From positions 14,918,963-14,982,962 of the forward strand of contig CM119265.1 of the NCBI GenBank assembly GCA_051294375.1: a DNA stretch of 64,000 nt, in the 5' to 3' direction. Numbering within the stretch: the first letter of the stretch is position 1; each line of letters opens with the position of its first letter. Below are positions 7,882-49,193 of this stretch, piece by piece. Under the pieces are notes generated by a model, which worked only from the letters and a program-made list of their open reading frames with translations, did not search any database and had not been told where the DNA came from. Both the position numbers and the translations under genes were made by a program. The DNA is from Paraspadella gotoi (taxonomy: Eukaryota > Animalia > Chaetognatha).

Positions 7882-7884
<3 letters not shown>

Positions 7885-7927
<43 letters not shown>

Positions 7928-7930: not shown

Positions 7931-8333
7931 ATTTTTTTTCCCTTTGATCTTTTTTTCTTTACTTACCTTACCTCCCTGCTCCTTTGTATTCATACATTCA
8001 TATGACTTTTTTATAGGTTTTAATATACCTAAATATGTAAGTTGGATAGTAATTTAATTAGATATTGATTTTATATTTAGTATAATTTTAAAATTAATGA
8101 TAAAAAATTTTAGTTTTGAAACCTACTTATCCATAAGATCGAGATCCCGGTATGTGATGTGTAAACAACAAAGATATAACAAAGTATCAATAATTTTATG
8201 ACATGGCCATTGGAAACATGACAAATATGACATGACCAATGAAAAACAAAAAACAAAAACAGAAACCAGTTTTAAAATTAAATTGACCATCATTCTCTTG
8301 GGTAAAATAAATGAATAAATGAAAACAAGATTG

Positions 8334-11300: not shown

Positions 11301-11851
11301 GTCACACATTTCCCTACCCACACACAAAATTTCATTCCAATCCAACCATCCAATCACAGAATAATTGGAGTTTTTTGCTAAGGTGGGACGGACGGACGAA
11401 CAGACATTTTTTTTGCATAAATTATTATTTATTATTCGATGTTCTGACATGATATAAGTGAATTAGGGGCGGACCGACGGACCGACAAAGTGAATTATAG
11501 TCGACTAAAAAAGCAGATCCAAGTAAAAATACATCATGAAATAGACCTGAAATGCAATGATTTCACATCGAGTCTCCGTCGGCCGCCTTTTGTATCGAAA
11601 TAGGACGAAACGCTATCTTCCATCAGCTTGGAGGTATTAGACAGTTTACCCAGACTCGCGAGGTCGACGAAGTCGAAAAGTCTGAAAAGTACCTCTGGTG
11701 AAAGACTGTTAAAAAATCCCAGAGGTGGCGGCGATGCCAGCGACGGCGAAGACTCCGTATGCCAATTTTTTGATGGAAAAACAACGTAAGATGCCAAACG
11801 GTTTAAACAAAACGGAACCGGTCGATACGTAGTTTTCCCGACAACAGCCAT
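8334..11851 (-). CDS. FBXO47: F-box only protein 47-like, about 5 exons (~11851-11547, ~10805-10113, ~9950-9777, ~8960-8521, ~8450-8334)
   Basis: F-box LGFFNSLSPEVLFRLFDFVDLASLGKLS, then LKRKTCLIPTRGRL, FVAGWEESE, LEMKLRLLL, LLYVLFGP, LADALRSLY, WLLENAACLLL, GQAKFQQCVL in the order of FBXO47 motifs. Confidence 0.85.
10843..11520 (-). mobile_element. Helentron-associated (HINE/DINE-1-like) non-autonomous element, family A, in FBXO47 intron (duplicate at ~18783-19465)
   Basis: Subterminal repeat GTCGGATCTGC, terminal hairpin GTTTG-CT-CAAAC, GTCC-type microsatellite; homologous to 33325-34050. Confidence 0.6.
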
Positions 11852-14357
11852 GGTGGACTGAAATGGACTGGACTGGACTGTACCATTTACAAAATATAAT
11901 AAAAAGCAATTATAATATTAAAACATACAAGAAGATGAAATCCAAAATAAGTAATTGCTAATTAATTTAGTATAGATCGAAATGAAAGGAATATAATTAA
12001 GCAAAGTCTTCTTCAGTTTCAATCTTTCCTTTCTTTTCCCATAATTCTCGAACAGCGAAAACACCCCTTTCACAAGTACTATTGGTCAAAAAAGTATCAC
12101 GATTCTTGGCGCGAAATCTCCACTCGCGCGGTAGGCATAACATGGTACGGATGACACTAACAAACAAACAACAATTGCATTATTATCAAGACTTTAACAT
12201 TCTTAAAAGTATATATATAGAAAGTCCAACCTATTAGGTGGTTTCGTAGATTTTCCTAAAGAATCAAGGTTATTTGGTGAAAGCTCTTCCCACTCCACCA
12301 TTTCCTCTTCAACCAATTTCCAAGAGGGTAAAGCAAAAATACCTCGTCGACATCCCTAAAAAGACGACAGCACGAAATTCGTATAAAAGGGAAATTTATT
12401 TGTATTTATTTTTATGCGTATTTATTGGTATAAATAAATATATTAATTAACAGCTTAATCCAAAGAGCCAGTTTAAGTTTTCCCCCCCTCGTATTTTGCA
12501 AACCTCGAATATTTTAAAAGATTCATTCTTTGAAGAGATAATGTTTTTCAATGGATCCACTAGGTTTTGAACGTTCGAATCTGAAATAAAAAAATATTTG
12601 CTCTAATTTATTTATGATCTTAACGGGGTTGACATAAAAACTGTTTTTTTTTAGGGTTTTATTGGTTTTTTGGGGAGTTTTTTAAATTGTAGATGTCAGA
12701 TTGTTATAAAAAATATTTTTAAAATATAAACTTAGGAAATATAAACTAAAGGAAAATGGTACCGAAGCCAGCACGATTATACTTTATCATTAAAATTGTA
12801 ATCGGGCATTGCCTAGGTTCACCCCGCCTATAAGCATGACAAGAGAGAGATCATAGAATGATACATCTCATCTCCCAATAAAAAAAAAAATTAATTATTT
12901 AGTCGAATATAAATATTTAAGAAGGCAGCTATTCTCTATCACATTGGAATTTTTTGTGTAATTTGTGTTCTGGAGCTCGAGTTTAACTTGAAAACTGTAA
13001 TTGATTGAGTTGCGATTTTTTTATGACGAAAAAGTTTGACGTTAAGCAGCGAATTTTCAAAGGGCACGATCGTAAACGATAAAGATGAAAAAGTTGTATT
13101 CCGCCGTCCGAATGGGGTTGTAAAAATCGAGTCGGTCCGCCTTCTCATATCCAGATTCGATAGTCGGCATCCCTCGTAGTCGCGAGTCATCGTGAGATAC
13201 TCGCCACATGCGATCGGCCCGTTCATCACCATGGACGAAAGGAACACAAGTTATTCAGGGAGAGAAAGAGGGGGTGAGAGCTCGAAAGAGATTCATTATT
13301 CAATTAGCTCGTCGTTCTCTGCGTCGATTTTAACGTTGAAAGAGTTTTTTTTTCCTAACCGGTGAGCGGCCGAAAAGAAGAGGAACGGAAAAAAATGTCT
13401 CACGCTTATACTCCACAATTGTTTCGTCATTTTCTTAAAAGTTTAAAACTTATTAATATATATATGGGTATACTATTATAACGTATGTATAACAAATGGG
13501 CCTCTATAATCTTATTATACAACGATGAACCACATTAAAGTTTATCAATATCATAATAACTTTTTTTAAAACAGAAGAATGATGTAGAACAGGCATTATA
13601 AATGGATACTGAATATGAAAACTGCAATTCCAGTGATTCAATGAGATTCTGGTGTATAAATTTTACATCGTGTAAGAGCGAAGACGAATTGAAACAAATC
13701 TTTCTGCCAAAGAATATCTTATTCCCTTCAAGGACAGAAAATCAATCAATAGGCTTAAGACTTCGATTTTAAAGCAATAAGTTAAACGTGGGCCCATTTA
13801 AAAATAAAATTTATTTAATAAAAAACCATAGTTTTTTTTCATAGTGTTAGTTATTCATGTTTTTAAAACGAATCACCTTGAAAATAGATATGGGGGATGC
13901 ATGAGTGGGGGACCACGATTACGGCACATTCGTCGAATTCGTCCATTTTTTACGTTGAAATTGAAAGCGTTTTAAAATTGTTCTGTATCATTTCACATAC
14001 GACGATCTTGGACAGGACCCGCATAGGTTGAGGTTTAACTCCGGCTTATGCGTTTCCTGTCTGTTTAAGTGTTCTCCGCAATTATCAATAATTAGGAGAC
14101 AGCGATTCCCGTTTTATTTTTGGCAAACAGTTCAGCAGAGCAAATTTGAAAAAATACAGTCGCCGTTCTTGAATGCCCTACAGTTACTGTTTCTTGTCCA
14201 AACCGGTTGAAATGAGACTCAGAAAAACGCTTTTTTTTAATTATAAATTAATTCTTAACTCTAATATTGTTTTATTAAATTAGAGAGTATAATGGGAGAA
14301 CAAAAATTGTAATTAGAATATTCGTGTTAAAAGAAGCAGTGACGAATTTTAATACCT

Positions 14358-14593
14358 TGAAGAGACTAGTAATTATTGATAATGTTAATGGACAGAACCG
14401 TTCAATATAGCATTAAGCAGTCCCTGAGCTCCGGATCAGGCTGTAACACGCATGTTAACAAGGCGGGTTAGCGCCCCGTCCCTCTTAACTGCCAGACGAC
14501 CCATGCCCGGACCTTTGGGTTGGGGAGGCGAATGACTTTGCCTCGGGACCAATGGCCGCTGATGAACGGTTGGTGGATTTTAGTCCCACAATA
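14358..14593 (-). mobile_element. Solo LTR, duplicate of the 6290-6523 insertion
   Basis: Same flanks as 6290-6523, error-rich. Confidence 0.85.
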
Positions 14594-16411
14594 ATCCGTT
14601 TGATATGAGTGTTCCTTTTTATCACCCCATATTATCGCTTATCTTTCAACCATGGTCCTGGGGTCTAGCCCTAATTGGAACAGTTGTTTGCGAAAAAAAG
14701 TAACGGAACGATCAAGCAAACCTCCCGTCAGGATCTGAATTCCGCGAGAAAGGAAGTTAACATATGGAAAATCGGAAGTGTGGCGGCCTCTCAGGGGGCA
14801 TCCTCTAGCACTTTAATTAAATTCTTTTTGAAGCCCAGGGCCCACGAAAGGTTACAACTAATTGCCCAATATCGAAACAATTTGACTAGAAATTACTCGC
14901 ATCTAAACGCAGAGAGTAAAGGCACATCATAATTACAAATAATTTAACTCTGGAGAACCACATGTATTTAAAAGCGTCTGCCGTGCTAACATTACATGGC
15001 AATCATCCCCCATTTCCAAATCGCACAGCGTCCTGGCAATAGCTTTTTCATAAATAATTCTATTCTTGAGGGAAAATTGTAATCTAAGTGTCAAGGAAGT
15101 AGGTAGTTGAAATATTTTGAAGTTTTCAGTTTTTATTTCATAATTAAAGAATTGCCAAGCAGTCGAAACGAAACAAATCAATCAATCAAATAAATTAAAC
15201 AATATTCCCAATCATTGTACCATAAAATTTATATACAGCGATAAGAATATTTTTAATAGTAACTTCTGATCTAGAGATGCCTTTAAGTAAAAAGTTACGC
15301 GACCACACTTGTTTACAATAGTTACATTATACTTTTTACTCTTTCCTAAAGAAGTAAGAGTGGGGGCAAAAATCAACGAGAAAAGGTAGGATATTTTCAA
15401 TCGAGAATTAAAATAAAGTTAAAATGCAAAAGCTTATGGATATTGATGAAAACAAGCTATTTAAGCAATGCAATTCATCAACAATACCATTTTTCTAAGG
15501 GGTAAATAGTAATTCAATTCGCTCGTATTCAAATTCCAAACACTAAAATGATAATGAATAAATAACATGCGTTACAGCAACAAGGATAATCGCTTTTGGA
15601 CGTTATATTTAAATTAAATCTCGACATGTACGACACGATTTGTTTTTTTTTGAATAGGCAAAAAAATCTACCTTGTAGTTAAGATATGACTAATAAAGAT
15701 AATCAGTAAAAATTCAAGTATATAAGCAATTTTATTTTCTTATAATGGTCGCGACTATATAAACAGTTTTGTCGGTTTATCCGTCCCGTTCATATCTTAT
15801 TTGGTTCATATTAGAATACTGAATTATAAGAAATATGCAAAAAACTTAAGTACCTCCATCGTTCCATACGTTTTTTCGTCCGTCCTATCTTTAGGCTTTG
15901 ACCGGTCATTACTCATGAGTGAATGATAATTGATCTGAAAATTTTGCGTGTAGCAAGAAAAGTTTGTTGATTGGCTTGAAATTAAGTTTGGATAAAATCT
16001 CTCTCTCTACTCTATTTTTTTTCCCTTTGATCTTTTTTTCTTTACTTACCTTCCTCCTGCTCCTTTGTATTCATACATTCATATGACTTTTTATAGGTTT
16101 TAATATACCTAAATATGTAAGTTGGATAAGTAATTTAATTAGATATTGATTTTATATTTAGTATAATTTTTAAAATAATGATAAAAATTTTAGTTTGAAC
16201 CTACTTATCCATAAAGAACGAGATCCCGGTATGTGATGTGTAAACAACAAGGATATAACAAAGTATCAATAATTTTTATGACATGGCCATTGGAAACATG
16301 ACAAATATGACATGACCAATGAAAAAAACAAAACAAAACAGAAACCAGTTTTAAAATTAAATTGACCATCATTCTCTTGGGTAAAATAAATGAATAAATG
16401 AAAACAAGATG

Positions 16412-19400
16412 TCATTCTTCCCTGAGTAATGTTTTGCTTGACTCGAGTTCGCACACGAATGGATCGACGAAGCGGCAAATGAGAAGAAAACTCTCCGCAG
16501 AAACGCATTGCTGAAACTTCGCTTGTCCTCTGGTAAAAATTTAAATTTAACAGGATTTTAAATCCCAAGTGAAATTTCATTTTAAAAGTTGTTAAGTTTT
16601 ACCTGAGAATTTTGTTGAGATCCTGGTGCTCTCCTCGTCCTCACACATTAGTTCAGCGTACTCTATTGATGAACTCAATGAAAGTGTTGCTTATGCTGTC
16701 GAAGAGAGCGTCTTGAATTTCGATTTCGGTTCCAAGCGCCGACAAGACCTCACGCAATATGGGATAACGTAAGTGGCGCCTGTGATGAAAAATAGGCATT
16801 GTATGATAGCTATGCTTGACTCCTACTCGATTCATACTACCCGCTAACCTGTAGTCAACATCCATGTGGACGACCGCGACCGAAAGCCGCTGCGATCCAG
16901 GCGCCGATATCCTCCACTTTTTTTCGACTGATTCGAGAGAGAAAGCAAAGTCTCGATCATTTCCCCACCGCATGACAGAAGCAGGCAGGCGGCGTTTTCC
17001 AGGAGCCATGTGTCTCCGTGAAGGATGGTACACTTCGTGCATCAGAGTTAAAAACTTCCCTAATTTGATTCGGTTATGTAGCTACACGGTCACAGAACAG
17101 TAGCAAAAGACACTTATTAAAATTTGATTATATAATCCTAGTTTTGTCCCCTTGATTTTAAAATAATAATTTATATACATTTTTACCAACCAAGAAGTTT
17201 TTCAATTCAATCTTATCAAATTAAATTTTTAAATAATTTTAAAAATAATTAATGTCTGTGATACAGGATATATTTATTCTTTCAGTGTATTGAAATTGGG
17301 CACAACCAATATAAAAATTATCTATTCATTTAAATAAATAAGCTTTCTTTCAACTGACTTTGGGCAGGCTTTGGTGTTAATTGAAATAGCAGGTCCCTGC
17401 AAGCTTTCAATCAAGCACTTTTATATATAAAGTTTATTCACTCCCAGAGTACGCTGGCTTCCCTATCAATGAAGTGGTATAATGTTTCAAAGAACGTTTC
17501 AATTGTATGAAAGACCATAATATTTATTAGTTAAAACCACTTCATGTTGACTTTAAAAAACGTTCATATTTAATAAAAACGTGATGATTATATGATATAT
17601 AATTTTTGTGATACAATTTTGGTGATACATTTACTGCAAAATGATTATTTTGCAAAATGTTTTGCCCTGTAAGAACAGTTAAGTATAACCTACACGAATC
17701 AATTTTACTTTTACCTGTGCGACCAACAATGAAAGAAGCCATGTAAAAGTGACCTCAAAGCGTCGGCTAAAGGAGAGAACCATTCTCGCGCGGCTTCGGA
17801 TGAAGGCGGTGTCATCTCCCCATATCTGACCATACGGATCGTGGGAAAACCAAAACGAGAAGAATCCAAAGGTCCAAAGAGGACGTATAGGCAAAAAACT
17901 GCAACAAATTATAACATGCTTTTTTTTTTTTAAATTATATCTAAACCTTAGGATATCTTAACGGTTAACCTCTAAGATACAGTAAAAAAACTTACAATTA
18001 TAAAAATACAGTCAAACAGAGACAGAAGAGCCCCACAAAAATTTTATAACTTACGCTTTGATCTAACAGTTCGTCGTGTAAAATCCGAGTGATCCAGATT
18101 TGCTAACTCACGCATTTCTAGCTTCCCGTTGCGCAACAAAACTTGCTTAAACGAATTTTCTAAAAATTTAACGAAACCGTTTCACGTTGACATTTTTGTT
18201 CTCCTCGTCTGGAAATTTTTCATCCACGAATCCTCTAGCAATACCTGAGTTTCATTTCAAGGAAAGGAAATTCTCCCGGAGCCTTCGATGAGAGAATATC
18301 GACGCGAGTCTTCATCATGCAGTGCTTCGAAAGAAGTTGAACGCGTAATTTGCCTCAGATTCTTCCCATCCAGCGACGAAAGTATGGAACATCTCGCCTG
18401 TCGTCGATTCAGTCCGAAAAAATAACTTATCCAACATATCAGAAACCGACGATGTGATAGGTGATTATGATGAGACAAAATCGTTTCGTCTGCTTCTCTT
18501 GGCTTTTCCGTATTTTTCTGTCGATTCAATTTCTACAATGCCAAACACGCTTGAAAGGCTTACTAGCAAGACCAGGCCGTCGCAAGAGTCGCGCGGTGCA
18601 TGCGACGGTTTGAGCAGTGAAGCAATCGAGTGACGCCCCACATTCATTAGAATTGGAAGTCGTCCGCGAGTGGAATCAAGCAAGTTTTCCGCTTCAGATA
18701 AACTGCCAATTTGTGAACGTGATTAAGGACGATCCTCGGATATCCCTGTTAATTGATTAGAAGAATATATAATATATATATAAAAGTTTGAGCAAACAAT
18801 GTCGGATCTTGCCCACGATCATTAGCGGTAATTAATAAATTAATTAATTTGATCCGAATGTTTTTTTTAGGTCTTCTTGTCTCTGACCAAGACAAAAGCA
18901 ACGACGACGATGATGGCGATGACGACAATAATGCCGATAACGATTGACTTGATTGAGTGATTGATTAAATAATTAATTAATTGATAAATTGATTGATTGA
19001 ATAATTAATAGATAAATAAAATGATTGATGAATAATTAATTGATTGATTGACAGATTAATTAATAATCGATTAATTAACTGATTAATTATTTTATAAATT
19101 AATACATCTTGTATTTATATTATATATTATATTATATTTAATATAAAAAAAGAAGCTTAATCAATTAGTAAAACGGGTTTTTTGTTTTTTTCATTTTAAC
19201 TCATTTCCACTAAAACGATTCCTTCAAAACTTGATTTCCAGCTTCGTCACACATTTCCCTACCCACACACAAAATTTCATTCCAATCCAACCATCCAATC
19301 ACAAATAATTGGAGTTTTTTGCTAAGGTGGGACGGACGGACGAACAGACATTTTTTTGCATAAATTATTATTTATTATTCGATGTTCTGACATGATATAA

Positions 19401-19795
19401 GTGAATTAAGGGGCGGACCGACGGACCGACAAAGTGAATTATAGTCGACTAAAAAAGCAGATCCAAGTAAAAATACATCATGAAATAGACCTGAAATGCA
19501 ATGATTTCACATCGAGTCTCCGTCGGCCGCCTTTTGTATCGAAATAGGACGAAACGCTATCTTCCATCAGCTTGGAGGTATTAGACAGTTTACCCAGACT
19601 CGCGAGGTCGACGAAGTCGAAAAAGTCTGAAAAGTACTCCGGTGAAAGACTGTTAAAAAATACCCAGAGGTGGCGGCGATGCCAGCGACGGCGAAGACTC
19701 CGTATGCCAATTTTTGATGGAAAAACAACGTAAGATGCCAAACGGTTTAAACAAAACGGAACCGGTCGATACGTAGTTTTCCCGACAACAGCCAT
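16412..19795 (-). CDS. FBXO47: Second FBXO47-like copy (frameshifted; probably an artefactual duplicate)
   Basis: Same exons and introns as 8334-11851, with scattered indels. Confidence 0.65.
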
Positions 19796-20782
19796 GGTGG
19801 ACTGAAATGGACTGGACTGGACTGTACCATTTACAAAATATATATAAAAAGCAATTGATAATATTAAAACATACAAGAAGATGAAATCCAAAATAAGTAA
19901 TTGCTAATTAATTTAGTATAGATCGAAATGAAAGGAATATAATTAAGCAAAGTCTTCTTCAGTTTCAATCTTTCCTTTTTTTCCCATAATTCTCGAACAG
20001 CGAAAACACCCTTTCACAAGTACTATTGGTCAAAAAAGTATCACGATTCTTGGCGCGAAAATCTCCACTCGCGCGGTAGGCATAACATGGTACGGATGAC
20101 ACTAACAAACAAACAACAATTGCATTATTATCAAGACTTTAACATTCTTAAAAGTATATATATAGAAAGTCCAACCTATTAGGTGGTTTCGTAGATTTTC
20201 CTAAAGAATCAGGTTATTTGGTGAAAGCTCTTCCCACTCCACCATTTCCTCTTCAACCAATTTCCAAGAGGGTAAAGCAAAAATACCTCGTCGACATCCC
20301 AAAAAGACGACAGCACGAAATTCGTATAAAAGGGAAATTTTATTTGTATTTATTTTTATGCGTATTTATTGGTATAAATAAAATATTAATTAACAGCTTA
20401 ATCCAAAGAGCCAGTTTAAGTTTTCCCCCCCTCGTATTTTGCAAACCTCGAATATTTTAAAAGATTCATTCTTTGAAGAGATAATGTTTTTCAAATGGAT
20501 CCACTAGGTTTTGAACGTTCGAATCTGAAATAAAAAAATATTTTGCTCTAATTTATTTATGATCTTAACGGGGTTGACAAAAAAACTGTTTTTTTTTAGG
20601 GTTTATTGGTTTTTTGGGGCAGTTTTTTAAATTGTAGATGTCAGATTGTTATAAAAAATATTTTAAAAATATAAACTTAGGAATATAAACTAAAGGAAAA
20701 TGGTACCGAAGCCAGCACGATTATACTTTATCATTAAAATTGTAATCGGGCATTGCCTAGGTTCACCCCGCCTATAAGCATG

Positions 20783-20807: not shown

Positions 20808-21008
20808 CTTTTAGTTGTGACCGCGGTGGCTGCATTGAGTAAAGCCTTAAGCTCATGAACCACTGGGTTACCGAGGATTCATCCTAACCAAGGGTTACCT
20901 AGCCTGCGGGAAAGCGTGAAGGACGGCCGTAAGCCGCATTTGGTGCGTGGCAAACCCCCAAGCCCAAGACCCGTTCCATGGCTGCAAAGAGAGGGGTTAT
21001 AGAGGTTA
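20808..21008 (+). mobile_element. tRNA(Met-like)-derived SINE
   Basis: Homologous to 25009-25203; A-box-like motif, CTCATGA anticodon-like loop, B-box-like motif. Confidence 0.55.
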
Positions 21009-22299
21009 GGCTTCGCGTACGATCGATGTCTTTTAGAACAACGAACTGAACTTCAATAATTACCAATCTTTTCTTGATCTCAACTAGTTAGTATGAAGCT
21101 TACTTCATTTAAAAAAACGGTAGTCTCAAGTTATCTCCATTCATTATCACTTAAACTTCCCAGGTAAAATTTCTAATGAGTTAAAAATACGGTAAGACAT
21201 GATTTCTTCAATGATTGTTTATCTAATCCCATTAACTGCGTAATTTTAAGATATAAGTATGTTCGAATTTTTAATGGTATAGATCATTTTTAAAGATCCG
21301 GAATTCCTCATAGAATTTACAGTCTTTTTACTTACATAAAAAAGTTTTTAGGCTTAAGACGCCACATTAAATGCTGATACAATTTTTTTTTTTCTTAAAT
21401 ACGCTTTCCCGATTATTTTTCTTCTCATTCTTTTTTCTTCTCTTTCTTAAATAATTTTCCTCTTCCCTCTTATCCTCCCTTACTTCTACTCTTCACTTAC
21501 GAATTTTTTGGCCCCTACCTTTTCTCTGCCACTCATGCACTTTTCCTCACATTTTTTCTCTCCTTCTCTCTCCCTTCTTTTTCGCCTTTTTCTTTCCAAT
21601 TTTCCCCCTCATTCTCTACCCTTTATTTGTCTCACTATATTTTTCTCCCTTTGCCCTATCTTTTTTTGCCTTTCGCCCTGTCTTTTTATTCTCTCCTCTT
21701 CTCTTTTTTCTTGTTTTCCATTCGTCTTCGCCTCATCCACATACGTTTACATTAAGCCAAATCAAAGAAAATATTTAAAATGCATTATTAAGAAAAGAAA
21801 ATCACGGTAGCCGCGTTGATTTTTCTTTCAATTTTGGTTGCCTAGCAAATTTAAGTAAATCCGACAGATTTTTGCGGAAAAATTTTCCGGCAAAATCTTG
21901 TCGATTTTTTGAGAAAAAACAAGTCCTGATGCTTCTCCAGTGGATTAAAAGGAAGCGGTTTTTTTTTGATTAATCAAGTCAGTATGATACCTGCAACTTT
22001 TAAAAAACTAATAAATGACGTTGAAATAATTCTTTATCAAAAATAAATGCAAGTCACAAAAAGTCACAAATAAAAGACGTCTTTAAAAATTATTTGTGCT
22101 AAAACCAGAAAAGTTTTTTTGATAATTTAATAGGTGTTAAAAGCTTATTCAACTAGGCCTATTTTTTCTGTAATTATAAACCAATTGTTGATTTATTTTT
22201 GTTTAACTAAATTATGAATAAAGACTGAAACTTCGCAACTTTTTGAACTTGTTACTTAAAATTAATTCATAGGCAAACTATAAAATGATTTAAGCTAAA

Positions 22300-23520
22300 T
22301 AAATTTACCCAGAGGTAAATGAAGATGAGAAGAACGGATTTCCAAAAGTAAAAAATTTTTCTCAACTTTCTTGCATTCAATCAGAAGGTCGTAAGTAAAG
22401 AATGGACAAAAATGGAACATAATTTTTTTGGCTAAAAGTTGCCAAAATGGTACATATTTATCATTAAAAACGGGTGGAGATGTTTTTAACGACATCCTTC
22501 GTTCGGCACCCTATTTTGTGTTGGGGTAAATCAAGTTTAATCAAACATTGGTAATAAACACTGAACAATAGTGAAAGAGTCGTTTTTTTTCCTTAATGCA
22601 TACGTTTGTAACGCGGAACCGGTTACGATAGTCATCTTCAGCCCACTTAGCACCTTATTCCACAAAATGTATATTAAGCTTAGTAAAGATGATATGATTT
22701 AAATTTTTATTGTAGTGGATTAAAAAATGCCAACCTTGGATCTTATACGAAATAGAAGACGAAAAAATACGGAAAAGTCGCCTCACCCCTGTCGTAACTT
22801 TATCAACTAGTATTTTATTAATAGGCTCTTTATTTATTAACTATCTGATAAATATATCTACAGAATCTAGTATTTTATTTAACTAATGGTAAAATCATTA
22901 CTGCATAGTCTGAATCTTTAATTACTTTTTCAACGATAACAAAGAGAAAAAGAAAATAATAAGATTGGTTACCAAAAGTGTGTATTGTTAGGATAAGCTA
23001 ACTGTCGGTCTTTAAAAGACTAAAATGAGAAGTATTATTGTCGCTTGAATCAAATAGAGCAAAAACGCCCCGTTGACAGCTGTGCTGTCGAGCTTGGGGA
23101 AGCCAGAACCTCCATAAAGGAGCGTAAAACTGACAAAATTAATAAGATTAAAGGAAAAGAATGATAATGGGCACGAAAACATTTTAAATTAACAAGTAAA
23201 GCAACATAAATTACTCAACAAAACTAAAAGTTTGAAAAAGCAGTAGTATCGTAATTAAACCATATTTTCGAGGAATCCAAATATCTGGATATTTTTTTGG
23301 CGTTTCGCTGCGGCCGCCACGTCTGGCTGCGCTGGACGAAAGCGTTGGAACGACTGAAAGGAACGTGGGTCGGAGCTGCGTCGGCCGAAGGAAGACGGAG
23401 CACCAAGTTCCTTGGTTTCATTGTAATAACCATAAGTAGGCACTTGAGAATTTCGCGAAAAGGGGGGCGCCAAGGGAGGACTCCTAGTCGAATAAAACTG
23501 GCATGAAATTTGATTTAAGG
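22300..23520 (-). CDS. Exon-like blocks of an unknown gene (partly duplicated at ~25200-26090)
   Basis: GC-richer ORF fragments such as YAPLWRFCFPKLDSTAVNGAFLLYLIQATIILL; family not recognised. Confidence 0.25.
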
Positions 23521-23754
23521 TTTCATTAGTATTATCCTAATCACCGATAGCCCAATGTCAGTTACACAATTAGCAGGAGACAAGTTTATTGTCTCCCAGA
23601 TATAAGTTACGAATCACAGTTCTAGCCGAAGGTCCTAAATGTGACGTATGAGTTAAAGTTTATTTTGTAATGCGCCATATCTCTGCATTGACCTACCAGG
23701 AGAGCCACCGAAACTGACACAAAAAAAAAAATCATATCTCTTTAACAACTAAGA

Positions 23755-24589
23755 ATAAAAATCTTAAAAAGCAATAGGATCGTCCGCAATTGCTAAGAAA
23801 AATCTGGATTGACGACAAATTTTGATACCAAAAAAAAACAAAATTTGAGAAAAGAAAAATAATTTATAAACAGAAAAAAAAAGAAGAAAAGAATAAATAT
23901 AAAGACAGAATAAAAGGAAAGAAAAATTCCATTCATTAAAAAAAAAAAAAAATTGTCAAAACGAAAATAAAAAATCCGATGTTGCGATAGCAAATGAATA
24001 ACATGCACGTATGCGATGCCCTAATTTTACGAGTTCAATCCTATTTCAATTTTTTTTTTAAATAAAAAACGCAGAGAAGAAAGGAGAAAAAAAAAAAGAA
24101 ATCAAAAGGCAGCAGCAGAAGCAGCAGGAGAAAAGAGAAAAAGAAAGAGCCCCTGCAGAGCCAGCTGCAAAGAAAGAAATCAAAGAGGCAGAAGCAGCAA
24201 GGAGAAAAGAGAGAAAAAAGAATAAGCCCCTGCAGAGCCAGCCTGCAGACTCGTTTTTTTTCCCTATGATTAGAATCAGTGAATAGGGAAAAGAGAGAGG
24301 GAGAGAGACATGTAAATTAAAAGAGAAAAGAGAGAGAGAAATATGAAATAAAAGAGAGAAAATTTGTTGTTTTGATAACGTAAACAAAACATATTTAAAT
24401 AACTGTCCAGCTCAATTTTAAAGCACATCGGTGATGAAGAAGCTGTATATAATTTTCAGCTTCCATACATCCAAATTTAATCAATACAAAAAGGGATCTA
24501 TAATTTGGAACGCCAACGCCGACGACGCCACTTATGGGCAAAGCGTTACAATATCGTCCGCAAACGCTTAGCGATTGCGACGATAAAAA
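23755..24589 (-). mobile_element. HINE-like family B (also ~26333-27136, partial ~44685-45205, ~48823-49635)
   Basis: Shared subterminal motif ATCGTCGCAAT, terminal hairpin ATCGTCGCAA...TTGCGACGAT, purine-rich microsatellite core. Confidence 0.55.
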
Positions 24590-24869
24590 TTTCATTGAAT
24601 AGCAACAATAATAAAACAGTTCTAGGTTGCTTCTCCTGCTTTTTGACTGTTAAAATTAACTTGCACCTGCACACTTAAACAAAAAACTACTAATTTGTTG
24701 TGTTGGACTAAAATTCTTGAAGGATCACTGAAAACTGTCAACAGTCAAACTGTCAAAAATTACCGGCTCCATCAGTTGACTCCCCTTGATATGAAACATT
24801 CATAAGGGTTTTGTTGGTGAGGCCTATTAGTTTGTGGAAGAGGTAGAATAACGGAGCAACATTGATTGG

Positions 24870-25007
24870 TATGGTGGACTAAAAATCCCCAACCGTTCAT
24901 AGCAAGCGGCCATTTGGTGCCGAGGCAAGTCATTCGCCCTCAAACCCAAAGGTCCGGTGTTCTAAGCCCGGTGGTCGTCTGGCAGTTAAGAGGGACGGGG
25001 CGCTTAC
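24870..25007 (+). mobile_element. Truncated 5' LTR, duplicate of the 27410 insertion
   Basis: Same upstream flank as 27410; breaks off at GGGGCGCTTAC. Confidence 0.85.
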
Positions 25008-25008
25008 A

Positions 25009-25203
25009 CTTTTAGTTGTGACCCGGTGGCTCATTGAGTAAAGCCTTAAGCTCATGACCACTGGGTACCGGGTTCATCCCTAACCAGGTACCTACCCTGC
25101 GGGAAGCGTGAGGACGGCCGTAAGCCGCATTGGGTGCGTGGCAAACCCCCAAGCCCAAGACCCGTTCCATGGCTGCTAGAGGGGGTTATAGATATAGAGG
25201 TTA
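25009..25203 (+). mobile_element. tRNA(Met-like)-derived SINE
   Basis: GACCCGGTGGCTCATTGAG (A box), CTCATGA, GGGTTCATCCC (B box), GC-rich body, TTATAGATATAG tail. Confidence 0.55.
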
Positions 25204-27409
25204 CGGATAGTCATCTTCAGCCCACTTAGCACCTTATCCACAAAATGTATATTAAGCTTAGTAAAGATGATATGATTTAAATTTTTTTGTAGTGGATTAA
25301 AAAAATGCCAACCTTGGATCTTATACGAAATAGAAGACGAAAAATACGGAAAAGTCGCCTCACCCCTGTCGTAACTTTTATCAACTAGTATTTTATTAAT
25401 AGGCTCTTTTATTTATTAACTATCTGATAAATATATCTACAGAATCTAGTATTTTATTTAACTAATGGTAAAATCATTACTGCATAGTCTGAATCTTTAA
25501 TTACTTTTTCAACGATAACAAAGAGAAAAAGAAAATAATAGATTGGTTACCAAAAGTGTTGTCATTGTAGGATAAGCTACTGTCGGTCTTTAAAAGACTA
25601 AAATGAGAAGTATTATTGTCGCTTGAATCAAATAGAGCAAAAACGCCCCGTTGACAGCTGTGCTGTCGAGCTTGGGGAAGCAGAACCTCCATAAGGAGCG
25701 TAAAACTGACAAAATTAATAAGATTAAAGGAAAAGAATGATAATGGGCACGAAAACATTTTAAATTAACAAGTAAAGCAACATAAATACTCAACAAAACT
25801 AAAAGTTTGAAAAAGCAGTAGTATCGTAATTAAACATATTTTCGAGGAATCCAAATATCTGGATATTTTTTTGGCGTTTCGCTGCGGCCGCCACGTCTGG
25901 CTGCGCTGGACGAAAGCGTTGGGAACGACTGAAAGGAACGTGGGTCGGAGCTGCGTCGGCCGAAGGAAGACGGAGCACCAAGTTCCTTGGTTTCATTGTA
26001 ATAACCATAAGTAGGCACTTGAGAATTTCGCGAAAAGGGGGGCGCCAAGGGAGGACTCCTAGTCGAATAAAACTGGCATGAAATTTGATTTTAAGGTTTC
26101 ATTAGTATTATCCTAATCACCGATAGCCCAATGTCAGTTACACAATTAGCAGGAGACAAGTTTATTGTCTCCCAGATATAAGTTACGAATCACAGTTCTA
26201 GCCGAAGGTCCTAAATGTGACGTATGAGTTAAAGTTTATTTTGTAATGCGCCATATCTCTGCATTGACCTACCAGGAGAGCCACCGAAACTGACACAAAA
26301 AAAAAATCATATCTCTTTAACAACTAAGAATAAAAATCTTAAAAGCAATAGGATCGTCGCAATTGCTAAGAAAATTGGATGAGACAAATTTTGATACCAA
26401 AAAAAAACAAATTTGAGAAAAGAAAAATAATTTATAAACAGAAAAAAAAGAAGAAAAGAATAAATATAAAGACAGAATAGAAAGGAAAGAAAAATTCCAT
26501 TCATTAAAAAAAAAAAAAAATTGTCAAAACGAAAATAAAAATCCGATGTTGCGATAGCAAAGATAACATGCACGTATGCGATGCCATTTTACGAGTTCAA
26601 TCCTATTTCAATTTTTTTTTTAAATAAAAACGCAGAGAGAAAGAGAGAAAAAAAAGAATCAAAGGCAGCAGCAGAAGCAGCAGGAGAAAAGAGAGAAAAG
26701 AAAGAGCCCCTGCAGAGCCGCTGCAAAGAAAGAAATCAAAGGCAGAAGCAGCAGGAGAAAAGAGAGAAAAAGAATAAGCCCCTGCAGAGCCAGCTGCAGA
26801 CTCGTTTTTTTTCCCTATGATTATGAATCAGTGAATAGGGAAAGAGAGAGGGAGAGAGACAGTAATTAAAAGAGAAAAGAGAGAGAGAAATATGAAAATA
26901 AAGAGAGAAAATTTGTTTGTTTTGATAAAACGTAAACAAAACATATTTAATAACTGTCCAGATCAATTTTAAGCACATCGGTGATGAGAAGCTGTATATA
27001 ATTTTCAGCTTCATACATCCAAATTTAATCATAAAAAAGGCGATCTATAATTTGGAACGCCAACGCCGACGACGCCACTTATGGGCAAAAGCGTTACAAT
27101 ATCGTCGCAAACGCTTAGCGATTGCGACGATAAAAATTTCATTGATAGCACAATAATAAAACAGTTCAGGTTGCTTCTTCCTGCTTTTTGACTGTAAAAT
27201 TAACTTGCACCTTGCCACACCTTAAACAAAAACTACTAATTTGTTGTGTTGGACTAAAATTCTTGAAGGATCACTGAAACTGTCAACGTCAACTGTCAAA
27301 AATTACCGCTCATCAGTTGACTCCCCTTGATATGAAACTTCATAAGGGTTTAGTTGTGAGCCTATTAGGTTTGTGAAGAGGGTTAGGAATAACGGAGCAA
27401 CATTGATGG

Positions 27410-28027
27410 TATGGTGACTAAAATCCACAACGTTCATACAGCGGCCATTTGGCCGAGGCAAGTCATTCGCCTCCCCAACCCAAAGGTCCGGGTTCTAGCC
27501 CGGTGGTCGTCTGGCAGTTAAGAGGGACGGGGCGCTTAACCGCCTGTAACATGGTGTTTACAGCCTGATCCAAAGCTCAGGGACTGCTTATATTGAACGG
27601 TCTGTCACTAACACATTTCAATAATTACTGTCTCTTCATTGGTGAGCCGACTTCCGAAACACAACACAACACAACACTTTCAGGCGACATGCCTACAACC
27701 TGGCGATGCACTTTCCACCCACACACATCAGACGAACTTTCACCAACAACAATTCACTGAAGAGACGCAACAGACTCTCCCTCGGGAGGGGGGATGTATG
27801 GTGGACTAAAATCCACCACCGTTCATCAGCGGCCATTGGTGCCGGAGGCAAGTCATTCGCCTCCCAACCAAAGGTCCGGGGTTCTATCCCGGTGGTCGTC
27901 TGGCAGTTAAGAGGGACGGGGCGCTTAACCCGCCTGTAACATGGTGTTACAGCCTGATCCGAAGCTCAGGGACTGCTTATATGAACGGTTCTGTCACTAA
28001 CACATTTCAATAATTACTGCCTCTTCA
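27410..28027 (+). mobile_element. Complete non-autonomous miniature LTR element (TRIM/retrozyme-like): LTR 27410-27638, PBS 27640-27651, PPT 27784-27794, LTR 27797-28027
   Basis: Direct repeats; TSD ATGG (27406-27409, 28028-28031); PBS TGGTGAGCCGAC; PPT GGGAGGGGGGA; no coding capacity. Confidence 0.9.
27903..27976 (+). ncRNA. Putative type-P5 twister ribozyme in 3' LTR (predicted cut 27926/27927); variant copy in 5' LTR at 27514-27587
   Basis: All core elements present: UAA, GA, T1 CCG/CGG, T2 GC/GC, P3, P4, P5. Confidence 0.75.
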
Positions 28028-29377: not shown

Positions 29378-29746
29378 AAGGGATGAACTGAGGCAAATAT
29401 TTTTTCTTAAATAGGTAATAGACAATTTTTTGGTTTACCTAGTAGTTAACTGAATAAAAGTTGGCAATTTTTAATTGAGGAAAGGATCTTTAAAACTAAG
29501 ATATAACTGATAAACTTATGATCTAATTTGCTTTAAAAGAGAAATGTTATCTTTAATAATTTGAAGCCAAATGATATTAATTTAAATATTGTATTCTATT
29601 GTAGTCTAACCTTGAGTTGCTCCCTCTATTTCCAGAAGACAACACTGACCTCCTTCTCCCAAAATGAGTTATTAGATATAATAAGCAAATAATATTTTTA
29701 AAAAGTGATATATTATGGTGGACTAAAATCCACCAACCGTTCATCA

Positions 29747-29818
29747 GCGGCCATTGGTGCCGGAGGCAAGTCATTCGCTTCCCAACCCAAAGGTCCGGGA
29801 TTTTAGCCCGGTGGCCGC
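29747..29818 (+). promoter_or_regulatory. tRNA-Gly(CCC)-like module in the LTR (internal Pol III A/B boxes)
   Basis: 72 nt; acceptor stem GCGGCCA/TGGCCGC; TGGTGCCGGAGG A box; T arm CCGGG..CCCGG (GGTTCTAGCCC in other copies); CCC loop with broken anticodon stem. Confidence 0.75.
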
Positions 29819-29821
29819 CTA

Positions 29822-29895
29822 GCAGTTAAGAGGGACGGGGCGCTTAACCCGCCTGTAACATGGTGTTACAGCCTGATCCGAAGCTCAGTGACTGC
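29822..29895 (+). ncRNA. Putative type-P5 twister ribozyme (predicted cut 29845/29846)
   Basis: Core nucleotides and both pseudoknots intact. Confidence 0.75.
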
Positions 29896-31065
29896 TTATA
29901 TTGAACGGTTCTGTCACTAACACATAACAATAATTACTGTCTCTTCAATATATATAATTAAATAGTATAGTTTAAAGAGTAAAACATTCATAAAATATAA
30001 AAATATAAGATAGTGAAACAAGTAATTTTGCAAATTTTCATATAAAATTAAAAAAATAACAAAATAGGATATTTTTTGGTATTAATTTTTAAACAAGATT
30101 GAAATTCAATTAGTTTTAGCCCAAATATTTTTAATGAAAGATAAAATAATTTTCTAAAAAAAATTAATAGCTAAAAATATGTTTGGTGTTTGGTGACAGG
30201 GGTTGGAGTCTATTATATAGTTGTTTTTAATTAAGATAAACATTTTTCAGTATGTTCAAGAATGTCATTTTTTACTTTTAGTTAAAGTCTTTGTTAATGA
30301 TGAAAAAATAGGAGAATATTTTTAGATTTTTTTTATTTGAAAATCATATCCATAGGATATTTACTTTCCATATCGAGCTCAAATTTATTAATATAATCAG
30401 CTAGGGAGGTATTGAGTAATCCATATCATATTCTGCAAAGAATTCTAATGAGCTTCAATATTCTAAATAAGATACAAAAACATTTTTGGACGACTTGAGT
30501 CTTGTGTACATTTTTACATCATCTTTGATCAAGGTTTTAATCTTGTCAATCATATCAGGATACAACTGAATACTTAAATTGCAAATCTCTTTAAATGTAT
30601 GCATCCTTATTGTTATTACTAATTTTTTTATTATCGGTTAATTTTTTTATTTATCAATGAATTAATTTTCTTTAATAATTTTATTAGTTATGGGTCTGGT
30701 AGTAGCCAAGTAGTTTACATACTTCATGCTGATTTTCATATTTCATACCATCTGGGAAAAGTATTTTTGGGCTTAAAATATAGTAATAACAAATTGAAAA
30801 TATAGTTGATAACGAAATTAAAACAATAAAAGAAAAAATATATTGTTTTATTTATCTTTAAAAATAAATATAAGCAAAATATTTTGATTCAGAAATTGCC
30901 TATCTTAATCAGGAAAATTCATTTCTTTACCTAGGAAATTTCAGTAACACTTTGCTCAGTTAATCAGGCAAAATATTACCGAAGTTCACCCCTTATTTCT
31001 TAAGCGTTTTAAATTTTTTTGATGTTCAAAGACATGTTAAAATATAACTTATATCTGTTAGTATA

Positions 31066-39404: not shown

Positions 39405-40460
39405 CTTATATTTGTATTTGCATTTATTCATACAGCGGGTCCGAGGACCATGGGCCACAGTGGTTTTACAAAAACACAAAGCAGATAACAGAGATACAAG
39501 CAGTAATACAATAAGTATGACATTAGAAAATTAGATTTCCAGGAACTCAGTAAATTTAAGCAATGAATAAATTTTTCCTAATAGAAAAAAGGCCAATTCT
39601 ACAAAAAAACAAAAAACTAGTTTCAAATATTAACGGAATATTACTTAAAAAGGCAATCGGACTAATGTGATTTCCCAAATGGTATTTATTAATATCTTTG
39701 ATATACTCCGGAACGAGCGGAGACGAGTTCATTAAACTAACAAATTGGGAATGTGCTCGTCTGAATATTCTTAATCGTAAGTCTCGTAAGCCTAATGAAT
39801 CTAAAACTATTTTATTAGACATTTTTCGGTTTTGTAATACATTTTAAAAATTTATTTTCTATTGATTCAATTTTTAACCACTTTCCATTAGACCTAGAAC
39901 AGAAACATGACATACTATATTCAAGTAATGATATCGCAAAGACTTGATACAATTCTAACATTAAGTTTATATCTAAATGATTATATTTAAATTTCAACTT
40001 TCGAAGCACGCCACAACGTTGTCGCATTTTCTTTTCTATAGTTTCTAAATGTTTACTCCATGTCATTTTATCATCAAAAGTTACGCCCAAAAAAACCGCT
40101 TCCCTTATTGTTTTATTCCCACCCCAAATAATTCTAAATTTAGGGATCTAAGTTACGCCTTCGTCTTTAAAAAATTATTAACTGACACTTCTCCGGCGCC
40201 AGTTTAAGTCTCCACTTACTACACCACCTCTGAATCGCATCTAATGTCCTTTTCATTTCAAATTGACACAACTCCAGAGAACTCTCAGTTACCCAATTAG
40301 CTGTATCGTCGGCAAATTGGCTGTTCCGAACAATCTTAAGGACTCCTTCGGTTATACTAAAGACATATATTGAAAAAATGTCCGGCGAAAGAATACCACC
40401 CTGTGGACATCCACACGCTTATAACTTGCCTATAGTTTGTTGCTCATTTGTTAAAAATTA
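39405..40460 (-). mobile_element. 5'-truncated non-LTR retrotransposon (LINE) reverse transcriptase fragment
   Basis: GCPQGGILSP (~40380-40410), QFADDTA (~40300-40320), GVTFDDKMTWSKHL, LLEYS; tail AATAAATGCAAATACAAAT. Confidence 0.85.
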
Positions 40461-40829
40461 AATCTAAGCGACTACTGGCGCCGCCTTTTGTTTTTAAAGA
40501 AATCTTATAAATTATAAAGAATAAATGACATAAATAAAAAGAAAAGTAATGCGGCGCAACACCTTGGAATAACCGTTCCTTGTTTTAATTATACATTCGA
40601 CTAAAAACGAGTCTAGCGGCTGAAAATTATGCGTCTCTTTCTTTATTTTTAGTTGCGCCACGAGTATTCGCGTAGCAAATAAGTCACTTTTTGGTTGGTC
40701 AGTCGGTCTGGCCCACTTCTGTTAAAAATGCATGTAATTTGCCTTTAGCCTTTTAATTGTTATTGTGTCTCTTTCTCTTTATTTCTCTATTTCTTACTTT
40801 GTAAAAGTTTTGTTTGTTAATTCTTTTTC

Positions 40830-45100: not shown

Positions 45101-48100
45101 TCCTGACCCAATTTTAATGATATCGATGATAAGAAGCTGTATATAAATTGTCAGCTTATAATTCGGAACGACGACGACGATAACGACGCCACTTATGTGC
45201 AAAACCACAGCAAAATGTGAAATTGAATTTTGGACATGGAAGCTAACTTAAGGCTTATAAGCACCAAAACTAAATATATGATAGACATAGCCGATGAAAT
45301 TTAAATGCTAATGTATACTGCATTAAAATACTCTATGATAAGCATAGGTTATGGAATTAAAATATTTTTTGTCAAAAATGTTTTTTTGAGTATACTAACC
45401 TAATTAAAAATATTATATTACTATATAGAGAAAAAATATTTTTTTTTAAATCTTAAAATTTTTTTATGGATTCTGATAGAGCATATAGCAATAGACGGCA
45501 ATCTCCGTTTTAACCTTTAATTTATCAACAAAAAGCTGATACTTCAGCAACTATATTTTAATTTTGTAAAACTTACTTATCTTCAAAAATTAGCTTACAT
45601 TCTCCAATAAATTAGATAGGTCCCCATTAAGACTTAATCTGTTTGCTATGAAAAATTTAAATCAAATTTATTTGGTTCATTTAAAAAATAAAATAATTTT
45701 TATATTGGTTGTACCAATTTCATAACTGTATAAAAATACTGTATAAAAAAATACTAAATATTTCATGATTCAATGCTTCTCTGCCAAAAAATCTGAACAA
45801 TGAGGGGTCAATAGTCTGGATTTCCAGACAGAGCCAGATGGTCAAGGATTTTGCCCTCGCTTTCCATTCACAATTTACACCAAAAGCTCCCCTTATAACT
45901 GGTTCAATAGCGGAGAAAAAAAATATTTATTCATAAAAAAGCAATTACGAGATGAAAATAATATACAAAATTACAAAATATAATAAAATATTATAGAGTT
46001 TTTGGGAATGTTAAAGTTTAGAGCGAAAAACAAGACAATTGTTACACGCCGCAGGGAAGTCTGGTTCGTTAGCCCTAAGGGTTTTTTTCTAGGTCAAGGT
46101 CGATATTTTCTTAACCTTCAAAACATACAATATCAAATCTTTCAACGCTTATAATCAAGATTCTCTTATAACAAAGTACAGAAGGAATTTCAGTCTTATT
46201 GACTCAAGCAAAAAAACCAGACAGTAAGCAAACAAACATTCTGGTCGGCCGAGATGGCCGAGAAACCCACCCAAACTCGCCTAAGAGGATTGGGAAGGAA
46301 GAATGAACGCGGGGGTCACTAACATGAAAGGATAACTTCCGTCTAAAAATGTATTACGAAAAATTAATTACGCAAAAACTTAACAAATTTAATTCGAAAA
46401 GAGAAACAAAAACAAAGTGTAGGATAATCAGCCCCTAAAATTGATATACTTATATATAACCTTTACAATATTAATAATAACATGGGCGTGAAACTAAGAA
46501 TATTTGAATTATAATCCTTTAAATTTTAATTGATCTTTCCAGAAAAGCTTGGTAGACCAGAGGAAGAAAACGGATTAATGCTCTGTAAAGTTTGCGGAGA
46601 TAAAGCATCCGGATTTCATTACGGGGTCTTTGCTTGCGAAGGATGCAAGGTATTTTCATCCAGATCACTTATTTATTAGTTTATATTACGAAATAAAATG
46701 TTAACAAGCCTTTCTTCTTTCAGGGTTTCTTTCGAAGAACTAAAAAATTTAACATTGAATATGAAAAATGCGAAAAAGAAGGAGGCTGCGTCATAGTAAG
46801 ATTATCGAGAAATCGATGCCAATACTGCCGAATGCTCAAGTGCAAAGCCGTTGGGATGAGTCACGATGGTAAATAAACTAAATAAAAGTAACAAAGTTGT
46901 CATCTTTTAACCATCTGGACTGACATTTAAAACTTGGGATTTTTTTTAATTTCAGCTGTAAGACTCGGAAGATGCCCCAAAAAAGATCGGCCAACAGCCC
47001 AAAACATGGTCGCTCCAGCGGCGGTTGCAAATCAATCACGATTGGAGCAGCTCGTCCTTAATATACATGAAGCTCACAGACAGACGCTATCTTCAATAGA
47101 AAAAGTAACCGAATTCGGAAATAAAACGGTTAGTCAACTAATGTTTTAAACAATATTTTTAGACTAAAAAGTTACGAAATTGGTATAACCAATACAATTT
47201 AGGAGATATCATGTAGGAAATTGCGCGCCAGATGTTACGAATCGCAGTTGAAAGCCCGAGGGGTTATTAACCTATATTTTGTTCGCAGCTCAGACCATTG
47301 ACCCAGTATCATAGAAATGATGCAATGACCCGAAAATAAGAATCGGCTTCAGGGACGGTCAAGCTGCAGATAGCCCCCCTGCCGTTGTACCCTAAAAGAC
47401 CGAATGAGTCACTCTGTATGAACAAAGAAAAGAGGTCAACGTCGAGAGAGAGTACGGGTTTATGCAAATGTTTCTAACAGATGACGTACTGAATCCCTCA
47501 TATCCTGAATAACGTAATCGTTCTCAGAAGTAAATCTATAGTTTCGGAAATCAGAGCAAGGTTTATCTTTTCTAAAAAAAGTAATAATAATAATAATAAT
47601 TTGTACGATCGGGGAATAAAGGGGGATTCATTTAATGAAAAAAAAAAAAAAATAGAAAAAAATTATAAATATGAACAATTGAACATAATATTTAAAAAAT
47701 TCAAGTACTTTAAAAATTATGAATAATGATAGATTAAATATATGATAAAAATCATTTGATTATTCCTCAAGTAATACCAACTTAAAAAACAAAGTTCATG
47801 TCATGAATGATGATAAAATTTTATATGTAGCAGATTGCTATTATCATAAATGTAAACCTGTGACAGTGTGAGATTAAAGGGTTTATAAAAGGAGCTCTTT
47901 TCGGGGCTTTATGTAAGGCTTCGAGAAGGCTTACTGAATCTGACCTCTTGGTAAATCTCCCTTGGGATGATAATCGCTGAAGTCAAGAATTGTTTGGCTC
48001 AAGTAATTTTTGCGTCAATACATGTAACTGATCGCAAATGAGGGCCAAAGTTTTATTTTGATTGAATGACCTATGTATTTTAAAAATAGGAAGAAATATC

Positions 48101-49193
48101 TTCAACCATTCATGATGTTAGAAGATTAATTATGTTATCAATTTTAGTTCTGCCAAATCAAGACGGAAGAAGACTTTGCATTGAGCTTAACATCTCGAAT
48201 TCCCCACATCATGAATCAAATCATCCGGTTCGCACGGAGCATTCCTCAGTTCTCGGGACTCAAATCTAATGATCAGCAATCTTTAATTCGCGGCGGATTT
48301 CTCGAAGTCTTCGTCGCAAGGACGGCTTTTGTCATGATTGCGGAGGAGGTAAGAATTGATCGTAATTACATTTCTTTTAATATTGGGTTAACTTGTAAAC
48401 TTGAACAAATTATATTAACGTTCCAGGATAAATTGATCATCCCTCCATTTCGTATGGAGTGCGAGAAAAGCGTTTGGGAAAATTTAGGCACCAAAGGGGA
48501 ATTTATCGGTTTTCTACATTCATTCGCGCAAAAATTTCAAGCGTTGGATCTTTTGGACGTTGAAGTCTCTATATTCGCTACCCTTCTATTGCTGTGTTCT
48601 GGTAAAAAAGATTTTAAAAAGTTTCTCCAAGTCGCACACAATTTAATTAATTTTATATTAATCTCTTAGATCGCGAAAATCTTAATGACGTAAAAGCCGT
48701 GACGCAAATCGAAGAAGATATTACATTAGCATTGCAAGGACAAATAAAGCTGAATCATGATAACCACTCTAGTCTTTTTCCAAAGTAAGTTAATACAATT
48801 TACTATCCACCTTAAATTCTAATAAAAAATCTTGAAAGCCGAAGGGATCGTCGCAATCACATAAAAAATCTGGTCCCATGACAAACTTTGATACTCAAAC
48901 AAAAAAATAAATAAATATATGAGTGCATAAATAAAATGAATGATGAATGGATGAATTAAATTTGAATTTATTTTATTAAAAAAAATTGAGATAAATTGCA
49001 TAGAGTAAATAAATTTAAAAACAAACTTGGCTTAATATATAAAAAAAATTAAATAAATAAATATATAAATAAGTAAATAAATTTAAAATTAAAAACTGAA
49101 TTAATTAAATTGAACGAATTTAATTGAAGAAATTAAATGAAATAAAGAAGGGGAAAATATGGTAAAATGATAATAAAAACACAGAGAGAGAGG

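Follow-up and report, generated by a model that had tools for sequence, protein, structure and literature searches.

LTR elements of the window

The window, i.e. the whole stretch of 64,000 nucleotides analysed here, is of animal character: the neighbouring genes are a nuclear receptor, FBXO47 and a DC-STAMP-like gene. The nuclear receptor gene (46697-48669) has zf-C4 and Hormone_recep domains and an unusual hinge, and no close relative of it was found in homologue searches. Decayed reverse-transcriptase fragments are present on the minus strand at 39815-40721 (RVT_1, E 8e-13), and the lone reverse-transcriptase fragment among the scanned frames, at 40170-40418, looked LINE-like by eye. Two tandem duplications, 4827-20782 (8 kb) and 20808-27538 (2.4 kb), contain many homopolymer indels around an N gap, and are probably uncollapsed haplotypes of an unpolished assembly.

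The 74-nt motif at 29822-29895 (plus strand), which an earlier note had described as a type-P5 twister ribozyme in an LTR, indeed lies inside a true LTR, a 234-bp repeat with TA...CA ends and a 4-bp target duplication. This flagged copy is a solo LTR (29714-29947, plus strand, duplication ATAT). In the fold of the whole LTR, a 7-bp hairpin forms at the 5′ end (29716-29735), and an 8-bp helix (5′ arm 29736-29743, partner 29902-29909) encloses a tRNA-like domain and the twister domain.

Two full elements were found, both on the plus strand. Element 1 (27410-28027, 618 bp, duplication ATGG) consists of an LTR (27410-27638), an internal part (27639-27796) and a second LTR (27797-28027). Its 3′ LTR motif (27903-27976) is intact, while the 5′ one has a deleted C and a change in T1. 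Element 2 (56146-56792, 647 bp, duplication GTTT) is divided in the same manner (56146-56377, 56378-56558 and 56559-56792); both of its motifs, 56254-56327 and 56667-56740, have a G>A change in T2, and the 3′ motif also a change in T1. Between them, the full elements thus have four motifs, three with damaging changes.

Two more solo LTRs were identified. The first (6290-6523, minus strand, duplication GGAT, intact motif at 6349-6422) has a twin at 14358-14593, within the 8-kb assembly duplication. The second (61256-61437, plus strand, duplication CCAG) has an internal 5′ deletion, and its motif (61314-61387) forms a straight 3-bp P2 (CCU/AGG). Finally, a partial LTR (24870-25006, plus strand), which duplicates the 27410 copy, stops a single base beyond the predicted cut site, where another repeat follows. 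This is most likely a contig end, a coincidence of about 2%; less probably, it could be a ligation chimera of cleaved RNA. Because the 14358 and 24870 copies sit in duplicated segments, they were set aside, which leaves 5 insertions in ∼53 kb. All five independent insertions have a 4-bp target duplication, and none a 5-bp one.

In run X1, which consists of contigs whose RNA origin is only guessed, 800 contigs fell on the element and showed loose ends where the LTRs terminate. The joints going backwards in these contigs are there because the element has two LTRs; neither they nor the depth of the run has any bearing on expression or on circles.

A twister-like motif outside the family profile

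Re-reading the sequence gave the same letters at 29822-29895 as in the earlier note. Set beside the Rfam Twister-P5 consensus, as it aligns to two true viral members, the motif has GA, U^AA, GC and U-NNN-AA-GC, all in type-P5 order. Its parts are P5 (29822-27 with 29890-95), P2′ GAGG (29830-33), GA (29834-35), T1′ CGG (29836-38), a self-complementary linker GGCGCU (29839-29844, plus strand) in place of the P1 hairpin, the predicted cut site U29845^A29846-A, P2 CCC (29848-50), T2 GC (29851-52), P3 (29853-71), P4 (29872-76 with P4′ at 29885-89) and the loop U-CCG-AA-GC (29877-84). One detail had been misread: P4′ of the flagged copy was given as UCAG(G), but the actual letters are UCAGU, and the outer P4 pair is broken. 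T1 (CCG/CGG) and T2 (GC/GC) are able to pair, and 4 of the 8 aligned copies are fully intact. An alternative register with GA-GGG as T1′ was ruled out by a G-G clash with CCG and by the loss of P2.

How often such an arrangement is expected by chance was estimated with a relaxed type-P5 descriptor, which allows a P2 of 3 or 4 nt, a linker of 2-25 nt and closure by any Watson-Crick pair. It was loosened after the motif had been seen, and does not count P3, P5 or U-1. With both strands searched, it matched the window at exactly four places, the copies at 6349, 27903, 29822 and 61314 whose core had been called intact. No match was obtained in 3 x 20 Mb of Markov random sequence, and the calculated chance of a match is 1.4e-8 per base, ∼7e-6 per LTR and ∼2e-3 per window. 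A strict descriptor, with a 4-bp P2 and a G-C closing pair, found nothing in the window.

Family profiles gave a different answer. Over the window, Rfam at gathering scores returned no match to the motif, the score of RF02684 not being reached, and a search of two LTR copies up to E 10 reported nothing. A custom model, R1, based on 12 natural P5 twisters, with the misaligned L050 and L054 left out, gave matches to the loop region only, insignificant at E 0.68-3.5, 6 of 9 being on LTR copies. A metagenome scan for the motif yielded 23 matches, about the chance number, none of them homologous. In viral scans with the motif's own T1, none of 78 loci passed the descriptor with a 3-nt P2, and 3 distinct weak matches were found among 120 loci with a 4-nt P2. 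The claim of a type-P5 twister therefore stands for the anatomy; it does not for recognition by Rfam or the custom model, nor for the consensus, of which the 4-bp P2, the P1 hairpin and the G-C closing pair are all missing. We conclude that the motif is real and non-random, yet outside the family profile.

These three departures were compared with what is tolerated elsewhere. P2 has a 3-nt strand making two pairs plus a bulged pair or an A-C mismatch, against four pairs in the consensus; in the accessible text of PMC5408937, alteration of the four-pair P2 'might disrupt' the active site. P1, called minimal in the earlier note, is replaced by the 6-nt linker, a length that does not allow a normal P1 hairpin, and whose pairing is possible only between two copies; the same text describes P1 as dispensable. 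The P4 closing pair is A-U in all 8 aligned copies, against a G-C given there as essentially invariant. In the rice twister Osa-1-4 (PMC5113685), an A-U closing pair (G23A/C32U) had a relative activity of 0.85 and a CCG/CGG T1 (C27G/G47C) one of 0.86, and every change of G13 brought it below 0.2; these values were counted along the rows of the supplementary matrix, and the 2-hour end point masks slower rates. Natural twisters tested in bulk showed imperfections in P1 and P2 without loss of cleavage, as far as the available text of PMC11662667 describes. Among the 402 viral and prokaryotic loci of our own scans for comparison twisters, all four viral type-P5 twisters with a 3-nt P2 strand (L050:37-103, L054:37-103, L055:37-94 and L305:38-89) were above the Rfam cut-off, at 38-52 bits, and all had a strong P1 hairpin. 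Each departure is therefore tolerated when alone, and the present motif combines all three. As an aside, viral contigs L170 (59-113) and L189 had a weak twister-P1 match (36.9 bits, cut-off 67.2, E 3e-6).

Folding was computed with ViennaRNA, in nested folds without pseudoknots. In copy 27903, P5 and P4 formed with probabilities of 0.93-1.0. P2 had a probability of 0, the favoured hairpin burying T1′ and T2; this competing hairpin lies 7.8 kcal/mol below the twister-compatible nested fold, in a calculation that ignores pseudoknots. In the same kind of folding, P2 was also below 0.1 in two natural-twister controls. P4 fell to 0.33 in the flagged copy because of a G>U at 29889.

Variation among copies adds little to this picture. 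Six copies, 97% alike and making five distinct rows, gave no pair out of 27 changing on both sides, and no outside homologues were found for covariation. The claim that T1 covaries is thus correct as a compensated difference from other twisters, and does not extend to the copies themselves. In copy 61314 the A-C position of P2 becomes A-U, a single anecdote at a CpG site. Variable columns amount to 8 of 74 in the motif and 33 of 157 in the rest of the LTR (6 of the 8 copies), a weak difference. Among X1 contigs, one substitution reached a share of at least 5% within 27903-27976, in the P3 loop; 8 indel rows were left out of this count. The T2 G>A found together with other diagnostic bases in both LTRs of element 2 is equivalent to a change of G13, and may reflect the copying of a dead motif, an error of reverse transcription or parallel CpG decay. 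Judged from its sequence, the motif very probably folds like a type-P5 twister, and probably has the corresponding activity.

A Helenus-type element and its possible cycle

A tRNA-like stretch (29747-29819, plus strand) ends three bases upstream of the motif. ARAGORN found no tRNA in the LTR at its default threshold, and called this stretch a 'possible pseudogene' tRNA-Gly at the 80% threshold only; Rfam gave no tRNA match for it. At the lowered threshold, noisy with 32 calls over the window, a cloverleaf was placed at the matching position in 4 LTRs. A box A-like sequence is found at 29755-29766, and a box B-like one at 29798-29808, degraded in the flagged copy and of the GGTTC type in its sisters (4 of the 6 copies listed). 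Another tRNA-headed repeat, SINE-like, is present at 25009-25195 and 20808-21003, both copies being error-rich. It contains words reminiscent of a twister (GGACGG, TAAGCCGC and CCCAAGCCC), has no valid loop or P4, and found no match in Rfam.

The internal part of element 2 starts with a primer-binding site, TTGGTGAGCCCGAC (56378-56391, plus strand), identical over 13 of 14 bases to the published tRNA-Trp site of Helenus-2_SyJa and Gypsy-32_NVi. It ends with a polypurine tract (56546-56556, plus strand), followed by TG and the 3′ LTR; in element 1 the tract is at about 27784-27794. Both full elements have the primer site and the tract and, more completely, the whole layout of a motif in each LTR, primer site, purine tract and 4-bp duplication. 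No Pfam match was obtained in two scanned frames of element 1. Helenus TRIMs, as defined in the accessible part of PMC10886601 (Kojima 2024), make 4-bp duplications in animals, and a tRNA-Trp primer with 4-bp duplications is given as typical of the CsRn1 Gypsy lineage in that of PMC3630058. Four features that the earlier note does not mention, namely the tRNA-like stretch, the polypurine tract, the primer site and the self-complementarity of the linker, together give the element its identity, which is almost certainly that of a Helenus-type TRIM. The 4-bp duplications, the primer site, the purine tract and the lack of a tail ruled out a SINE, a Helitron or a tandem non-LTR retrozyme. An autonomous partner was not found in the window, none of the 85 open frames scanned having a Gypsy domain.

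Ribozymes are not mentioned for Helenus in the available text of PMC10886601, where the word occurs only in the title of a reference. Inspecting its published sequences by eye, we nevertheless recognised a type III hammerhead right after the tRNA-like stretch in Helenus-2_SyJa-LTR and Helenus-2_SyUm-LTR, both from wasps, in the order GUC, helix I, CUGAUGA, helix II, GAAA, helix III, with 12 complementary bases between the loops. Most animal Helenus LTRs there end, also by eye, shortly past box B and have no twister loop. As most of these published LTRs have no ribozyme, the class can transpose without one. The wasp hammerhead, in an element of equal class and primer type and in an equal slot, is the best outside support for our motif, and suggests that the slot is functional.

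The reading that we favour, at a probability of roughly one half, is that of a Helenus-type TRIM whose divergent, likely self-cleaving twister-like motif makes it work as an animal LTR retrozyme. In the 5′ LTR, RNA polymerase III would start at the tRNA-like stretch, and would then read through the element, as no T-run would stop it. The motif in each LTR would then cut at U^A, by analogy with a conserved G as the base and an A as the acid, and release a monomer of 389-413 nt with a 5′-OH and a 2′,3′-cyclic phosphate. A host RtcB-type ligase would close it into a circle with a single whole LTR, the primer site and the polypurine tract. This circle would be copied and integrated by a Gypsy element that uses a tRNA-Trp primer and is CsRn1-like, to judge from primer and duplication length. 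The retrozyme model and RtcB circularisation are taken from the accessible text of PMC4918200 and PMC7229834. Element 1 has no T4 run and element 2 one at its very end, an absence which is insignificant at 22-23% T. Cutting into 389-413-nt monomers is likely, possibly only as a two-LTR dimer, and we give the complete retrozyme cycle about even odds.

Closed as circles, the predicted cut-to-cut monomers (motifs mutated) fold more stably than shuffled sequences, with z of -2.8 and -1.7. In these predicted circles, the internal region is paired to the LTR end and to the primer site, and the motif is held in an inactive rod. The predicted pairing joins 27629-27645 to 27742-27770 in element 1, and a like pairing is seen in both full elements. 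On these models, the primer site may be structurally gated.

The missing P1 hairpin could be dispensable, or could be supplied by the palindromic linkers of the two LTRs pairing with each other. GGCGCU pairs with itself over six bases, two pairs being G-U, which has a ∼5% chance for a random 6-mer; 7 of the 8 aligned copies keep it unaltered, and only the error-rich duplicate departs from it. When the linker forms P1 in a swapped dimer, the computed energy is -51.1 kcal/mol; two monomers in the twister-compatible fold give -39.4, two misfolded monomers -54.8 and the best cofold -66.0. For element 2, the natural two-LTR transcript favoured swapped P5 pairing (0.57-0.78), which was not so for element 1 (0-0.15); values for the linker duplex were no higher than 0.09 and 0. 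From this modelling, a swapped-dimer twister is possible. Some ribozymes of metazoan non-LTR retrozymes are active only as dimers, according to the available text of PMC7761336. The solo LTR 61256-61437 lies in sense orientation within a probable intron (61133-∼61531, splice sites placed by eye) of the DC-STAMP-like gene (Pfam E 0.0018 on a later frame), with its twister core intact and its box A region deleted. A dimer requirement would explain how an LTR with an intact core persists in a sense intron, for this one case.

Among the other readings, we consider it unlikely that a decayed twister sits in an ordinary Helenus TRIM, does not cut, and leaves the element to move in the usual way of LTR elements, from a Pol III transcript that stays uncut. 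The simultaneous loss of three consensus features, the preference for the competing fold, the lack of a profile match and the many published Helenus without ribozyme all point that way, as does the T2 change in both LTRs of element 2: since the two have it in common, the element may have been copied although its motif was probably dead. However, the majority form keeps all catalytic and pseudoknot bases, and the T1 and P4 changes are compensated and each known to be active singly. Indels aside, the lone substitution at a share of at least 5% among X1 contigs falls in the P3 loop, and wasp Helenus have a hammerhead in the matching slot.

Also improbable is that the motif cuts mainly in the 3′ LTR, as a maker of Pol III 3′ ends, and that a linear RNA uncut at its 5′ side, which retains a repeated region, is copied without any circle. 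An LTR lacking an internal T-run terminator fits such a substitute, the competing fold would leave cleavage partial, and for Cassandra the template copied is a linear Pol III RNA bearing short repeats at its ends, in the account accessible in PMC10886601. But with the motif in both LTRs the 5′ copy should cut too, the cut-to-cut monomers are more stable than shuffles as circles, and plant LTR retrozymes of matching layout are described as accumulating as circles. Accidental resemblance, the 74 nt being a structural or packaging domain unrelated to twisters, is very improbable: although neither Rfam nor the custom model supports the motif and the descriptor was fitted after the fact, its chance per LTR stays at ∼7e-6 even so loosened, and twelve fixed bases, two pseudoknots and three helices are found in canonical order.

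We finally consider a broader extension of the retrozyme reading, speculative and rather doubtful as a whole: tRNA-Trp-primed Helenus would be unrecognised animal LTR retrozymes driven by Pol III, whose slot accepts different ribozymes interchangeably, a hammerhead in wasps and a twister in the present element, the twister being an obligate dimer. If true, the palindromic linker would form P1 only across the two LTRs within a single transcript; full elements would be cut into circles, and the many solo LTRs in host introns would stay silent.

Comparison with known systems

Plant LTR retrozymes, as described in the accessible text of Cervera et al. 2016 (PMC4918200), likewise have a ribozyme in each LTR, a primer site and a purine tract, 4-bp duplications, solo LTRs, no coding capacity and a Gypsy-type helper. 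Proper to them are the type III hammerhead, the tRNA-Met primer, circles of 600-1000 nt, and cleavage and circularisation that have been shown. The present element is in contrast animal, and has a twister-like motif, a tRNA-Trp-type primer, an internal tRNA-like promoter and a predicted monomer of 389-413 nt; no hammerhead core was found in its LTRs. Reviews and a July 2026 preprint (10.64898/2026.07.22.740005) present LTR retrozymes, in the text available, as primarily of plants and with type III hammerheads, and we found no report of a twister in an LTR element, or of an animal LTR retrozyme, in the open-access literature. Metazoan non-LTR retrozymes (PMC7229834, bioRxiv 10.64898/2026.07.22.740005) share the animal host and monomers of 170-400 nt, but have type I hammerheads in tandem repeats, and are stated in the accessible text to be without LTRs, primer site or purine tract. 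The reading favoured here would, if true, break both the plant and hammerhead view of LTR retrozymes and the LTR-less view of animal ones.

With type-P5 twisters (RF02684), the motif shares the order and identity of GA, UAA, GC and U-NNN-AA-GC, the T1 and T2 pairings, and P3, P4 and P5; it differs in having a 6-nt palindromic linker and an A-U pair where the family has an 8-bp P1 hairpin and a G-C closing P4. The T-variant twisters at the 5′ end of Perere-3, an RTE element (Liu et al. 2021, PMC8501958), also have a weak or missing P1 and also serve a retrotransposon, but an autonomous non-LTR one, with a type-P1 layout and a single ribozyme at the 5′ end. A retrozyme function here would be a second role for twister in retrotransposition. 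The motif moreover offers a cheap test of whether dimerisation can switch on a natural twister. To our knowledge, the biological role of twister ribozymes is mostly unknown.

Like Helenus TRIMs as set out in the available text of PMC10886601, the element is below 1 kb and non-coding, with two LTRs, a tRNA-like stretch, a primer site, a polypurine tract, 4-bp duplications and many solo LTRs. The nearest are Helenus-2_SyJa and Helenus-2_SyUm of Synergus wasps, the tRNA-Trp-type primer site being common to all, and several wasp families have TA...CA ends as well; five short words of the element gave no matching family in the accessible supplement. The difference lies after the tRNA-like stretch, where ∼130 nt with the twister-like motif are found here and a short tail in most published LTRs. 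If the retrozyme reading is true, Helenus and retrozymes, two classes described apart, would be joined. The element is a variant joining known kinds, a Helenus-type TRIM with a twister-like motif in a retrozyme layout.
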